Notes under the pieces: generated by a model
Database searches by the model: none
What the model saw: the letters and a program-made list of their open reading frames with translations, nothing else
What the model was told of the DNA's origin: nothing
Shown: positions 2,848 to 19,533 of the stretch, piece after piece
Layout of the letters: each line of letters begins with the position of its first letter
Position numbering within the stretch: position 1 is the first letter of the stretch
Translations under genes and position numbers: made by a program
IMG/VR virus record: IMGVR_UViG_3300047669_000652
Span: 1 to 29,633 of that record
DNA: 29,633 nt
Origin: a virus
Taxonomy: Duplodnaviria > Caudoviricetes
Strand: one strand, 5' to 3'

Positions 2848-3107
2848 AACTAGATATATTAACTGCAAAAATGTTGAAAAAGGGCTTCTCACAAGAAAAA
2901 GCAGAAGCATATGCTGTTGAAATTACAAATATAGCAAAGATATATGGAGTCAATCCGTATGACTTTATTAATGAACTTTCAGCAGAATCAGACTTCAACG
3001 AATTGGGCGCATTCGTCTTTAATAATGCATTGCGATTTGGTTATAAGACGGGCAAGATGGCTCAACGAAAACCAAACACTTATATCGCAAGGGCAATTAT
3101 TAAATAA
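2844..3107 (+). CDS. hypothetical protein (morphogenesis operon)
   Basis: 87 aa; ATGA overlap with upstream stop and TAATG overlap with downstream start; GGGAG RBS. Confidence 0.8.
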   Translation: MKLDILTAKMLKKGFSQEKAEAYAVEITNIAKIYGVNPYDFINELSAESDFNELGAFVFNNALRFGYKTGKMAQRKPNTYIARAIIK

Positions 3108-3580
3108 TGGCTAAATTCCATCAAGGCAAATACACAGTAATAAACGAAGAAAAATACTCAGGAAACGGAACGCCCGTTTTTAGAAGCAGTTGGGAGCAGA
3201 CTTTTATGCAGTTCTGTGACAACAATCCAAACGTTATGGCATGGGCAAGTGAACCAGTCAGAGTTACTTACAAACATCCTTTAACTGGCAAATTAACAAC
3301 ATATGTTCCTGATTTCGTTGTTGTGTATAGAGATTCCAATGGTAAGAAAAACGCAGAATTAATCGAAATCAAACCAGCAAATCAATCAAATCCAAAATTC
3401 GCACGTGGCAGGGCACAACAGTCACAAGTAGCAATAAATTATGCTAAGTGGGAAGCCGCTACACAATGGGCTAAAAAAAGAGGTATGAAGTTTAGAGTTC
3501 TTAATGAAGGCGATATTTATGCTAACACTAAGAAACCTAAAGCAGTTAAAAAACCTAAGAAGCCAATCAAACCAAGATAA
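3107..3580 (+). CDS. gp4: head completion nuclease (T4 gp4-like, TnsA-type PD-(D/E)xK)
   Basis: FRSSWE..FM.FCD.NP.V..WASE, YVPDF, LIEIKP, NYAKWEAA motifs. Confidence 0.85.
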   Translation: MAKFHQGKYTVINEEKYSGNGTPVFRSSWEQTFMQFCDNNPNVMAWASEPVRVTYKHPLTGKLTTYVPDFVVVYRDSNGKKNAELIEIKPANQSNPKFARGRAQQSQVAINYAKWEAATQWAKKRGMKFRVLNEGDIYANTKKPKAVKKPKKPIKPR

Positions 3581-3582
3581 CA

Positions 3583-3690
3583 CACCTTAGGACCGATATA
3601 AGTTTCGGCTTTGCTGTTACATATGTCTTATAGGTGAGGATGCCGTTATCCTTTATTCATATCGCTACTATGACTACAAAAAACGGCAAC
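3583..3690. ncRNA. candidate structured RNA (several stems, possible pseudoknot); family unassigned, strand uncertain
   Basis: Pairings 3583-3593/3625-3636, 3593-3596/3605-3608, 3637-3641/3648-3652, 3657-3661/3669-3673 and 3641-3647/3682-3688 in a non-coding gap that is GC-richer than its flanks. Confidence 0.55.
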
Positions 3691-3699
3691 TTTATTTTT

Positions 3700-3707
3700 G
3701 ATAAATA
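3700..3707 (+). promoter_or_regulatory. late promoter GATAAATA
   Basis: Consensus copy upstream of putative TerS. Confidence 0.7.
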
Positions 3708-3735
3708 CGTATATAATTAATTAAGAGTGTATATT

Positions 3736-4254
3736 ATGACAAAGAAACTAGAAGAAACTTTTAATATTGGACCAACAGAAGAAGAACCTGTTGAGACAAT
3801 TGAAGAGGAAACACCCTCAATAGAAGAATCGAAAGAACTAACAGAAATTCTATACTCAGAGTTGAAGACTACTGAGAAGATTGATAGTGCATTACCACTA
3901 GTATCAGACCTTAATCAACATGACAAAGAAATGGACGATATTCATAAAATGGCATTAGATGCGTTTAACGATTTGGTTCAATTAGGAATGAACGTAGAAG
4001 TACATGCTGGTGCTAAATTACTAGAAACAGCAAACCAGATGCTAAAAACAGCCATGGAAGCAAAAGATAGTAAGGTAGATAGAAAATTAAAGATGATTAA
4101 TCTTCAACTTCAAAAAGCGAAGTTGGACCATAGTGTCCAGAAGTCACTACCAGAGGGTACAGAACTAGAAAGTGACGGAGCAATAACAATTGACCGTAAT
4201 GAACTGCTAAAACGCATAGACAATGCCCAAAAAGATATAAAAAATGATAAATAA
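3736..4254 (+). CDS. putative terminase small subunit (gp16-like)
   Basis: Acidic N-terminus, helical coiled-coil core (ALDAFNDLVQLGMNVE...MLKTAMEAK..K..RKLKMINLQL) and C-terminal strand-helix (ITIDRNELLKRI) like the gp16 layout; near TerL. ATG 3736 chosen over GTG 3727. Confidence 0.5.
   Translation: MTKKLEETFNIGPTEEEPVETIEEETPSIEESKELTEILYSELKTTEKIDSALPLVSDLNQHDKEMDDIHKMALDAFNDLVQLGMNVEVHAGAKLLETANQMLKTAMEAKDSKVDRKLKMINLQLQKAKLDHSVQKSLPEGTELESDGAITIDRNELLKRIDNAQKDIKNDK
4246..4253 (+). promoter_or_regulatory. late promoter GATAAATA overlapping upstream stop codon
   Basis: Consensus copy ahead of the 4295 ORF. Confidence 0.65.
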
Positions 4255-10455: not shown

Positions 10456-11538
10456 ATGGCACGAGCCTTTGATGCGAGTAAGTTTCGCAAAAATATAACA
10501 AAATCTGTTCCTGGTATGAGTGTTGGTTTTAGAGACCCAGACACTTGGGTTTCAACAGGAAATTTCACATTAAATAAACTTATCAGTAACGACTTCCATA
10601 AGGGAATTCCACTTGGTAAAGTAACAGTCTTTGCAGGTGAAAGTGGTGCAGGTAAATCATTTATCGCCGCTGGTAACATAGTTAAAAACGCACAAGACCA
10701 AGGAATTTTTGTAGTTCTAATCGACAGTGAGAATGCACTAGACGAAACATGGTTACATGCACTCGATGTAGATACTACGCCAGAAAAACTATTAAAATTA
10801 AACGTAGCAATGATTGACGATGTTGCTAAAATCATTTCAGACTTTATGAAAGGTTATAAAGAAGACCACGCAGATAGACCAGACGAAGACCGTCCTAAGG
10901 TTTTATTTGTGATTGATAGTCTAGGAATGATGATGACCCCAACTGATGTTGACCAGTTCAATAAGGGAGACATGAAAGGTGATATGGGTCGTAAGCCAAA
11001 AGCATTGGCATCGTTAGTACGTAATAGTGTGAATATGTTTGGTGACTATAACGTAGGTTTAGTTGCGACAAATCACACGTATGCATCACAAGATATGTTT
11101 GACCCAGACGATAAGATATCAGGTGGTCAAGGGTTTATCTATGCTAGTTCTATTGTAGTAGCAATGCGTAAACTTAAACTAAAAGTAGATGCAGATGGTA
11201 ACAAAACTTCACAAGTGCATGGTATTAGAGCGGCTTGTAAAGTAATGAAAACACGATACTCAAAACCATTTGAGAGTGTGCAAGTTGAGATTCCATACGA
11301 AACTGGTATGAGTCCTTATAGCGGTCTAGTTGAGTTCTTCGAAGCAAAAGGTTTACTTGTTAAACAAGGAAATCGATTGAAGTATATGGCTAAATCTGGC
11401 GAAGAGATGATTGAATTTCGCAAGAATTGGTCAGATGAAAAACTTGATATTGTTATGAATGATTGGAATGAAGAGAACATTGATGCTGAAAAACACGAAT
11501 TAGAATCAGTTGAAACTGTGGACTCTGAAGAAGTATAA
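10456..11538 (+). CDS. uvsX: UvsX/RecA-like recombinase
   Basis: Walker A GESGAGKS, LIDSENA, FVIDSLG, TNHTY, SGGQG; TAAGGAG RBS before ATG 10456. Confidence 0.93.
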   Translation: MARAFDASKFRKNITKSVPGMSVGFRDPDTWVSTGNFTLNKLISNDFHKGIPLGKVTVFAGESGAGKSFIAAGNIVKNAQDQGIFVVLIDSENALDETWLHALDVDTTPEKLLKLNVAMIDDVAKIISDFMKGYKEDHADRPDEDRPKVLFVIDSLGMMMTPTDVDQFNKGDMKGDMGRKPKALASLVRNSVNMFGDYNVGLVATNHTYASQDMFDPDDKISGGQGFIYASSIVVAMRKLKLKVDADGNKTSQVHGIRAACKVMKTRYSKPFESVQVEIPYETGMSPYSGLVEFFEAKGLLVKQGNRLKYMAKSGEEMIEFRKNWSDEKLDIVMNDWNEENIDAEKHELESVETVDSEEV

Positions 11539-16398: not shown

Positions 16399-16865
16399 TA
16401 GAATTAGATAGCATAGGTAAAGTAGATTATGAAGTAAAAGATTTTGTTGCGTTAACACCTCATAACGAGGCGCACTTTTGTTTAGTACCTAGGACAGTTG
16501 ACCAAGAAACTATTTTAAAGTTACAAAAAGTAATGATGGACATAGGCAATGCAAACATTAAGAATGGAGTATGCAAAGAATACCATACTGTAATGAGATT
16601 TGTCAATGACCATCCAATTGTAGAAATACATTTAACACAGGAGAAAAGTATGACCAAAATAGGAACAGAGTTTCAAATATGGATACAAAGTACTTGGATG
16701 GAACATCTAGACGAGAAACTGGCTTGGAAAGAAAAAGTAGATTACACACAAGCCGAGTGGATTAAGAATAATATTAAATTCTTAACAAATAGATTTCAAG
16801 AAGTTAGAGAACTTCCACCTGAAGTAAAACAAAGAGCCAGAGCAATAGACGGATTTGGTGAGTAA
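16395..16865 (+). CDS. hypothetical protein, possibly a fusion of two small genes
   Basis: GTG 16395 overlaps nrdB TGA; internal AGGAG + in-frame ATG at 16650. Confidence 0.6.
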   Translation: MIELDSIGKVDYEVKDFVALTPHNEAHFCLVPRTVDQETILKLQKVMMDIGNANIKNGVCKEYHTVMRFVNDHPIVEIHLTQEKSMTKIGTEFQIWIQSTWMEHLDEKLAWKEKVDYTQAEWIKNNIKFLTNRFQEVRELPPEVKQRARAIDGFGE

Positions 16866-17620
16866 TGAAAATCGTACTTGCCACTGGTGGATTTGACCCA
16901 GTTCATTCTGGGCATATTTCATATCTTAAAGCCGCTAAAGAATTAGGTGACCATTTAATCGTTGGCTTAAACTCAGACGAATGGTTAGAACGTAAAAAGG
17001 GTAAAGCATTTATGCCCTGGAACGAACGTCTTTGTATTGTAAACAACTTACAAAAGGTAGACGAAGTGTTTACATTTATGGATGACGATGACACTGCCAT
17101 AAACTTTATAAAACAAGTCAGAGCCCACTACCCAACCGATAAACTAATTTTTGTTAATGGCGGAGACAGAACAGCAGACAATGTTCCAGAAATGGTATTT
17201 GATGATGTTGAGTTTGTATTCGGCGTTGGCGGAGAAGATAAGAAAAACTCAAGCAGTTGGATATTAGAAGAATGGAAATCACCTAAAACAATTCGTAATT
17301 GGGGATGGTATAGAGTATTAGATGATAAGTCTGGATATAAAGTTAAAGAATTAGTAATAGCACCTGGACAAAGTTTAAGTATGCAACGCCATAAACATAG
17401 AGCAGAACACTGGTACATTCTTAAAGGTGAATGCACATTTAATGTAATAAACATTTCTTCTGATATTGAAGAACTAGGAAAATATAAAGAAAATCATACT
17501 ATTACAATTGAAAAAGATAAATGGCACCAAGCATGTAACACCACAACCGAACCCTGTCACATATTAGAAGTACAATATGGTGACAAGTGTATAGAAGAAG
17601 ATATTGTGCGAATGAAATAA
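16865..17620 (+). CDS. cytidylyltransferase-like (RfaE/TagD-type) domain fused to a mannose-6-phosphate isomerase type II cupin
   Basis: TGGFDPVHSGH (HxGH), GLNSD, NGGDR, NSSS; C-terminal RNWGWY..., SLSMQRH.HRAEHW, LEVQYG...EEDIVR. Confidence 0.88.
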   Translation: MKIVLATGGFDPVHSGHISYLKAAKELGDHLIVGLNSDEWLERKKGKAFMPWNERLCIVNNLQKVDEVFTFMDDDDTAINFIKQVRAHYPTDKLIFVNGGDRTADNVPEMVFDDVEFVFGVGGEDKKNSSSWILEEWKSPKTIRNWGWYRVLDDKSGYKVKELVIAPGQSLSMQRHKHRAEHWYILKGECTFNVINISSDIEELGKYKENHTITIEKDKWHQACNTTTEPCHILEVQYGDKCIEEDIVRMK

Positions 17621-18361: not shown

Positions 18362-18586
18362 ATGATAGAAACAGATATAGTATTATTAACGGTAGCCTTC
18401 ATTGGTCTTTGTGCATATTTTAGTTATAAGAGCGGTATGAAAGAAGGATATCATCAAATGGCACTTGAAATTACCTCGGCGATAGTTGAGATACATTTTG
18501 AGAAAGAAAAAGTCGAGGCAATGAAACTCGAAGTAGAAGAAATTCAAAAAGAATGTGCAAAGTTAATGGAAGAGAGTAAGACATGA
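18362..18586 (+). CDS. small membrane-anchored coiled-coil protein
   Basis: GAGG RBS; N-terminal hydrophobic helix, then SYKSGMKEG. Confidence 0.7.
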
Positions 18587-19533
18587 AAATCATTTCAGGA
18601 AATAGTAACTTAAAACTCGCAGAAGAAATTGCATCACATTGTTTTGCCGGTTTAGTACCTGCAGAAATCAAAACTTTTGCAGATGGCGAGAGTAGTGTAG
18701 AGTTTTTAGAGAATGTTCGAGGCGAAGATGTCTTTATCGTTCAGAGTACTAGTCAACCAGTAAATGATAATCTAATGGAATTGCTCGTAATGATTGATGC
18801 CGCAAAGCGTAGTAGTGCAAAACGTATTACAGCAGTCATCCCTTATTTTGGTTACGCAAGACAAGATAGAAAAAGTGCAAGTCGCACTCCAATCACTGCA
18901 AAATTAGTAGCAAATCTAATGACAGAAGCAGGTGCAGATAGAGTTTTAACGATGGACTTACATGCTGGACAAATTCAAGGGTTCTTTGATATTCCAGTTG
19001 ATGATTTAACAAGTCGTATTGTATTTGCGAAAGATATTAAAAGAACATTAGGTGATAAAGCCTATAAAAATACAGTATTCGTTTCGCCTGATGCAGGTGG
19101 TACTATGAGAGCCCGTAAATTCGCTGAAATGTTTCATGGTGATATTGCTATCGTAGATAAACGTAGACCTAAAGCAGGTAAAAGCGAAGTGATGAATATT
19201 ATCGGTGAAGTTGAAGGTTCACACGCAATATTAGTTGATGATATCATTGATAGTGGTGGTACATTATGTAATGCCGCAAAGGCAATCATGGATGCGGGTG
19301 CATTAAGTGTACGAGCATACATTACCCACGGAGTTTTGACTGGCGAAGCATGTCAGAAGGTAGAAAAAAGTGTATTAAAAGAATTAGTAATCACAGACAG
19401 CATTGAATTCCGTTGTCCTGATGATTTAAAAAAGACACGGCAAGTTAGTGTTTCAAAACTATTCGGTGAAGCAATTCGCAGAGTAAGTAATGAAGAAAGT
19501 GTGAGTTCGTTATTTTTTAACCAAAAGGTATAA
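18583..19533 (+). CDS. prs: ribose-phosphate pyrophosphokinase (PRPP synthetase), auxiliary metabolic gene
   Basis: [50 protein letters not shown]. Confidence 0.95.

Follow-up and report, generated by a model that had tools for sequence, protein, structure and literature searches.

What is the folded block that stands directly behind the head-closure gene of a large marine phage, and on which strand does it act? The sequence analysed here, referred to as the window, is the whole 29,633-nucleotide (nt) stretch of IMG/VR record IMGVR_UViG_3300047669_000652, a 29.6-kb fragment of a T4-like large phage in which a 110-nt element separates the head-closure gene from a gene for a putative small terminase subunit (terS-like). 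Based on the letters alone, a first-pass annotation had found that nearly all of this gap can pair, and had proposed a phage non-coding RNA of no known family, a ribozyme- or riboswitch-like element, or a packaging signal. The window element is a marine variant of a large RNA family from large aquatic phages. Comparison of sequences indicates that it is a real, widespread phage RNA, very probably aimed at host ribosomal RNA (rRNA), and we put the probability that the RNA pairs with host rRNA at about 0.75. Its parts, with the evidence for each, are as follows.

3581..3690, plus strand: the RNA element, a block of exactly 110 nt that some close relatives have and others lack (model R1)
3583-3587/3632-3636 and 3595-3600/3622-3627, plus strand: hairpin P1, which masks part of the antisense arm
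3584..3595, plus strand: guide 1, a perfect 12-nt complement of 23S 1920-1931 (longest match to E. coli rRNA)
3584..3620, plus strand: extended antisense arm, with 32 predicted pairs to 23S 1897-1931, i.e. the 3' strand of helix 68 and all of helix 69 (duplex prediction)
3638..3651, plus strand: hairpin P2 with loop 2 (3642-3647; pairing in alignments)
3657..3673, plus strand: hairpin P3 with loop 3 (3662-3668; alignment and rRNA match)
3681..3688, plus strand: 3' tail, which pairs with loop 2 as a pseudoknot (alignments and rRNA comparison)

Complementarity to host ribosomal RNA

The complementarity was first seen in bacterial genomes, where many loci matching the family pattern are the reverse strand of 23S genes. 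E. coli rrnH served as the rRNA reference, and all rRNA positions are in E. coli numbering. The stretch 3583-3622 has its best predicted duplex at 23S 1896-1931 (-43.4 kcal/mol), which is also the best of 218 rRNA windows; shuffles of this arm gave -31.3 +/- 2.2 kcal/mol, and 0 of 100 reached the observed value. On cofolding, -43.4 kcal/mol stands against -17.0 and -12.7 kcal/mol for the RNAs alone, which gives the hybrid an advantage of about 14 kcal/mol over the two naked RNAs taken separately. Since the best duplex of the arm spans 23S 1896-1931, its CCGA/TCGG hairpin is, on this prediction, a mirror image of helix 69. Loop 3 is the complement of 23S 1930-1936. For loop 2 of the window there are three candidate targets, namely 16S helix 11 (257-267), 23S 1916-1922 and 23S 1900-1905. 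The tail at 3681-3687 is identical to 23S 1899-1905 and would thus be a built-in mask of loop 2.

Because the search patterns had fixed some segments, guide 1, loop 2 and loop 3 were each retested in a set whose pattern left that segment free. Guide 1 pairs fully with 23S 1921-1930 in 93 of 107 members (81 exactly, 12 with wobbles only). In 82 of 100 members, the loop-3 region is antisense to 23S 1890-1990 over at least 8 nt, versus 117 of 4200 comparisons over 42 other rRNA windows. In the family's common form, described below, loop 2 is antisense over 10-11 nt to the 16S 530 loop (506-535) in 65 of 79. Amongst the 27 non-standard loop-3 regions, 15 match 23S 1966-1979 (over 8 nt or more in 12 of them) and another 6 match 1964-1969; a loop shared by 4 could, in our reading, pair with wobbles to 23S 1938-1947 or 16S 1379-1386, and the remaining 2 are unassigned or near-standard. 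This re-aiming of loop 3 within a small region of 23S appears to be the strongest sign that pairing with rRNA is selected, and rRNA complementarity accounts for most of the invariant bases.

In the window subfamily, hairpin 2 has its best duplex at 16S 256-267. The two loop-2 alleles of this subfamily mirror two alleles of the 16S 256-267 loop, which occur in 37 and 25 (24 without one unpublished genome) of 201 genomes from the class of a Pseudoalteromonas genome. This mirroring is suggestive only, because the same loop also matches 23S 1916-1922 and 1900-1905. A weaker match, of 7 nt each, places loop 2 and the tail at 23S 1070-1076 and about 1099-1105 in the GTPase centre (104 of 121 representatives). 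Pairing of guide 1 with loop 3 within the RNA was considered and dropped, as loop 3 changes completely while guide 1 stays constant.

The RNA family, its fold and its strand

Two pattern scans estimated the family at about 420 and about 980 stored IMG/VR stretches; the family counts given here rest on the matches listed, 119 and 120 loci. The common form consists of three hairpins. Guide 1 is exposed by hairpin 1, as part of a bulge or, where members are minimal, of a plain loop; the loop of hairpin 2, which pairs with the 3' tail, is 7 nt long, and that of hairpin 3 is 9 nt long. Some common-form members (L184, L200, L239, L398 and L454) contain a built-in sense copy that masks guide 1, like the window subfamily. 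The first-pass annotation had proposed a check for covariation, and covarying homologues do exist: in 94 aligned members, 15 of 17 counted pairs show changes on both sides, and 89.8% of cells are paired versus 28-48% in slid controls. P1, where the alignment is ragged, was left out of this count.

Covariance models of Rfam 15 at gathering score gave no match in the window (three chance hits to small nucleolar RNAs (snoRNAs) had E values of 3.9-8.4) and none in 16 relatives; 8 further relatives gave one hit, with E 0.48 and outside the element, and common-form members were among the relatives without a family match. The lack of an Rfam match bears out the suggestion of a phage non-coding RNA outside known families. 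A model built from common-form members matched once per record in 10 records, of which two are at least 90% complete; a repeated mobile element was ruled out, the copy being single in each record. No constant neighbour gene was found among 79 upstream and 68 downstream proteins. Searches of GenBank phages by blastn with the window element and a common-form member returned chance hits only, so no cultured phage with the element was found, and a scan of bacterial genome contigs with the family pattern yielded no clear member among 120 loci judged by eye.

The complementarities listed for the window are all present in the sequence. The helix 3583-3593/3625-3636 comprises 11 bp with one bulge and one G-U pair, AGGAT/ATCCT encloses GCCGTT (3642-3647), whose complement AACGGC lies at 3682-3687, and TCATA/TATGA encloses TCGCTAC (3662-3668). 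Compared with shuffles, the plus strand folds well (z -3.21, 1 of 200 as good) and the minus strand more weakly (z -1.68, 10 of 200 as good). Among 21 sequences of the window type, every cell of P2 and of the pseudoknot helix is paired (100%); G-C is replaced by A-U in 3, and 2 show a wobble change. The suspected pairing of loop 2 with the tail is thus kept. No such conservation was seen in these sequences for the lower part of the 11-bp helix (A-U retained in 3 of 9, C-G in 5 of 20) or for the CCGA/TCGG hairpin, whose 3' arm is absent in 9-10 of the 21.

Doubt about the functional strand had come from an apparent GNRA loop (GCGA) and half of a tetraloop receptor (CCUAAG) on the minus strand. 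Neither is part of a tetraloop or its receptor; both are 23S sequence that is complementary to the plus strand, and gene co-orientation and G-U pairs point to the plus strand as the functional one. Flanks were scored in 114 of 124 representatives, after 2 mis-parsed ones and 8 with short flanks had been dropped. The upstream open reading frame (ORF) is co-oriented in 109 of the 112 with a call, and guide 1 begins between -6 and +22 nt from the upstream stop in 86 of 109. In 15 of the 109 loci (L170, L393, L411 and 12 others) the upstream ORF terminates at a UAG within guide 1. G-U cells outnumber A-C cells by 142:37 and 23:5. On the 3' side of the element, 118 loci include 53 with a promoter-like motif, 15 with a sigma70-like motif and 22 with a U run; on the opposite strand, the late-promoter motif is found once before and once after the element.

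Eight of 24 listed sequencing runs were compared, 7 of them RNA, and contigs from 3 of these 7, belonging to 2 studies, span all or part of the element. The RNA runs in which the region occurs bear the labels marine, seawater or aquatic. In run X2, RNA contigs accumulate on 3587-3763, where three start at 3587-3588 and one spans 3588-3686, with the flanking genes mostly uncovered; in run X1 of the same study, a contig at 3480-3708 bridges the gene end and the element. This pile-up is not counted for a discrete RNA, because contigs cannot show ends or levels.

A proposed action on ribosomal subunits and its rivals

The RNA would be a late product, formed in the window by the 3' end of the head-closure transcript, and the plus-strand RNA would act in trans, pairing with 23S helices 68-70 and probably with 16S. 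Trans action seems likely because there is no constant neighbour, there is one match in each of the 10 records, and a late-promoter motif of its own lies directly upstream of the element in 7 of 118. The loops would nucleate pairing with rRNA, and the self-masking helices (P1 and the pseudoknot) would then be displaced. The main targets line the subunit interface and mature late in 50S assembly, so that free or immature ribosomal subunits would be the likely substrates. The clamped 23S region carries intersubunit bridges, and bound subunits would for this reason leave translation or assembly. They would then be exposed to decay beginning near helix 71, which would free nucleotides for a genome of 300-350 kb. 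In E. coli, the initial cleavages of 23S quality control fall at helix 71, at the subunit interface, according to the available part of one report (PMC4179960). A ribonucleotide reductase is encoded in the window, which fits reuse of the released nucleotides without showing it. That a multi-armed, re-aimable antisense RNA grips the 23S bridge helices and a 16S loop at once, as a form of ribosome control by RNA only, has in our estimate rather better than even chances. The particular outcome, in which clamping keeps free or immature subunits from joining and their decay frees nucleotides, falls slightly short of even.

Several points weigh against pairing with rRNA or against the action built on it. 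Mismatches to 23S occur in 14 of the 107 guide-1 variants, and 4 further pattern matches are without guide 1; 3 of these look like chance hits, and one (L438) is likely a real member. Guide 1 of the window subfamily is largely paired inside P1. The family sequences are related, so that counts overstate independent events, and the re-aimed loops may rest on 3-4 lineages. The phage's host may differ from the reference species. As to strand, the G-U excess shrinks to 59:33 without the pseudoknot, a strand-neutral mismatch count (18:16) and a folding test (plus more stable in 64 of 121) are flat, and the RNA data are unstranded contigs. Among the 39 closest relatives, 8 are without exactly this block and retain the promoter motif. 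Finally, a late RNA that blocks subunits could hurt the phage's own late translation.

The same matches could serve other ends. The complements of guide 1 (1920-1931) and of loop 3 (1930-1936) come together at G1930/U1931, as might be expected of an rRNA guide that recruits a phage or host enzyme to modify or cut near these bases in the manner of a snoRNA, and Epstein-Barr virus (EBV) has a virus-encoded rRNA methylation guide, as described in the accessible part of a report (PMC13597479). Such a guide is unlikely here: loop 3 moves to other sites in other lineages, no neighbour gene is constant, and searches for RluD-like, RNase III and LSM-family proteins in 5 records (2 at least 90% complete) were negative, the LSM model having matched only archaeal controls and being no test for Hfq. 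By eye, the conserved columns of alignments A1 and A2 hold no C/D or H/ACA boxes. The guides of the element are ordered parallel to their target, and the guide order of an H/ACA pocket differs from a parallel arrangement. An RNA that pairs with the same sites might instead shield idle subunits from defence or starvation RNases and so preserve ribosomes for the phage. The same complementarity data would suit it, and the available part of one source describes unprotected ribosomes as degraded at the subunit interface, also in starvation, and hibernation factors as shielding that interface (PMC7913689). We regard protection as distinctly unlikely, as a duplex of 32 predicted pairs across helix 69 would not easily come apart again and would itself disable the subunit. 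The tight spacing between the upstream stop and guide 1 might also reflect action in cis on ribosomes finishing the upstream gene, with split subunits caught for recycling, re-initiation or stability of the messenger RNA (mRNA). This is quite improbable, given that the upstream genes are unrelated, that each record has one copy, that some members have their own promoter motif, and that promoters adjoin stop codons equally tightly in these genomes.

Two kinds of explanation do not involve pairing with rRNA. The minus strand might function as an rRNA look-alike, decoying an rRNA-cutting defence nuclease or an rRNA-binding protein; the flat outcome of one strand test would allow this, and at 5 loci of other phages the strand of the tRNA genes contains a copy of helices 69-70 in the sense orientation. 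Co-orientation and the G-U excess speak for the plus strand instead, the order of the pieces and their placement in hairpin loops fail to rebuild the rRNA fold, and the loops move between rRNA sites, which makes a mimic very improbable for this family. Least probable of all, only marginally conceivable, is a self-cleaving ribozyme, riboswitch, terminator cassette or packaging signal. The compact pseudoknotted fold would suit such an element, as would its placement between stop codon and promoter, which resembles that of the PeSL cassettes in the available part of their description (PMC4122927); no Rfam family matches, and none of these functions explains the rRNA complementarity. The genes downstream of the element are not constant, and in 53 of 118 loci it is followed by a promoter-like motif, both of which make a riboswitch unlikely. 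PeSL cassettes form series, versus one copy per record here, and a U run is present in only 22 of 118. The idea of a packaging signal also fails to fit other phages: G001 and G004 carry the RNA at distances of 173 and 87 kb from the head-closure gene, well away from the head-closure/terS-like pair, with an empty gap behind that gene.

Two further candidates were rejected. A phage mRNA target was considered on account of 10-nt complements of guide 1 in the window at 764-773 (tail-tube) and 10892-10901 (uvsX), where 0.03 are expected. Both sites lie on coding strands and encode Arg-Pro-Lys-Val. Of 69 distinct uvsX genes, parsed from 84 loci, 15 retain the exact site; the CGT and CCT codons are over-used there (51 and 53 of 69, versus 47% and 35% elsewhere). 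The tail-tube position is readable in one relative, which has lost the site. A homing-endonuclease decoy was rejected by inference, the site being split and reordered.

Two 17-nt scans for the rRNA complement also found unrelated phage elements. At L563, L585, L609 and L611, and also at L566, L570 and L582, small elements are complementary to 23S 1915-1936 over 17-22 nt and have a hairpin behind this stretch; in the first four, out of 22 distinct loci, the rRNA complement is followed by a hairpin and a U run on the antisense strand, which counts in favour of the antisense reading. Phage tRNA arrays (L599, L603, L605, L620 and L622; match at 401-417) contain a copy of 23S helices 69-70 of at least 17 nt in the rRNA sense, with no Rfam match besides tRNA and tmRNA (transfer-messenger RNA). 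In these 5 loci the tRNA genes lie on the other strand, that of the sense copy, so that the transcripts would carry it. These copies are possible rRNA mimics or decoys, and would keep the mimic explanation alive in general, though not for the family of the window element.

Genomic setting and comparison with known systems

The element is flanked by the following features.

3107..3580, plus strand: head-closure gene (T4 gp4-like, TnsA-type nuclease fold; phrog_218, E 1e-39; PF08722)
3699..3707, plus strand: late-promoter-like motif outside the element, assigned to the next gene (the motif recurs near gene starts; putative function)
3736..4254, plus strand: next gene, putative small terminase subunit (terS-like; phrog_16202, a family of unknown function)

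The closest cultured relatives of the head-closure protein are those of jumbo phages such as SCTP-2, Atu_ph07 and PA5oct (44-48% identity). The RNA element begins at the head-closure stop codon (3580) and makes up 110 of the 155 nt between this stop and the ATG at 3736. Model R1 finds it as the sole full match in the window (42.8 bits, E 1.8e-8), the window row having been part of the R1 alignment. ATAAATA is probably a late promoter, since it recurs near gene starts in the window. The earlier view that the element is not the leader of the terS-like gene holds.

Amongst 80 viral loci with a related head-closure gene, the element follows directly after the stop in 29, is cut off in 2 and is missing from this place in 49, which likewise speaks against a packaging signal. 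On a tree of 36 distinct rows, presence and absence require 5 changes, at least 3 of which are forced by well-supported branches. A copy elsewhere was sought in relatives lacking the element and matched in 0 of 5 fragments, which are 5-24% complete. More distant relatives (L039, L040, L048, L049, L059-L063, L075 and L076) have extra ORFs of about 540-730 nt in the head-closure gap, which is therefore an insertion hot spot. The same gap of L058 holds a different structured motif (2433-2500), ahead of an ORF that resembles an HNH nuclease by eye; this motif has no Rfam match and no rRNA match longer than 8 nt. Auxiliary metabolic genes in the window encode a cytidylyltransferase-cupin fusion and a ribose-phosphate pyrophosphokinase (16865-17620 and 18583-19533).

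No description of this RNA family was found in the literature searched, which leaves most subscription papers outside its coverage, and the same literature yielded no rRNA-directed small RNA in bacteria or bacterial viruses. Small RNAs directed at rRNA are a hallmark of archaea and eukaryotes. If true, pairing of the phage RNA with rRNA would thus represent a new route for phage control of host ribosomes, via loops re-aimed between neighbouring rRNA strands, and would give an indication of the parts of rRNA that are accessible to a natural RNA inside cells. Conservation of the targets in E. coli makes the claim testable at once with purified subunits and a laboratory strain.

Trans-acting antisense RNAs that work by base-pairing or loop-kissing are known from bacteria, plasmids and phages, e.g. 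RNA I/RNA II, CopA and P1 c4. Like such base-pairing small RNAs, the element is a small folded RNA with short complementary seeds in loops and a possible origin in a 3' untranslated region, and it has a conserved, exposed seed complementary to a target RNA, though guide 1 is partly masked in the window subfamily. Unlike them, it combines three or four separate arms with a masking pseudoknot and lacks a terminator hairpin, and it matches universally conserved rRNA, whereas they target mRNAs or primer RNAs.

The structured RNAs reported from IMG/VR by Fremin et al. 2023 (PMC10690425) come from the same database and are motifs of the same kind, and the family could be among their 8,495 candidates; the accessible part of that paper mentions no rRNA complementarity, and the comparison is by description only. 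As far as the available part of their description goes (PMC4122927), the PeSL cassettes of T4-like phages resemble the element in that a stem-loop stands between stop and promoter and is patchy among relatives. They differ in forming a series of copies, each a stem-loop with an early promoter, whereas the element has one match per record, a sigma70-like motif in 15 of 118, three hairpins with a pseudoknot, conserved loops rather than a conserved promoter, and mostly no U run.

From the C/D and H/ACA guides and chaperone snoRNAs of archaea and eukaryotes, among them the v-snoRNA1 of EBV (PMC13597479), the element differs in belonging to a bacterial virus, in having no boxes, in a target site that shifts between lineages, and in the lack of a partner enzyme in 5 records, for which three families were tried. 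It shares with them an antisense match to functional centres of rRNA, and, as in snoRNA guides, its two guides are adjacent on the target.
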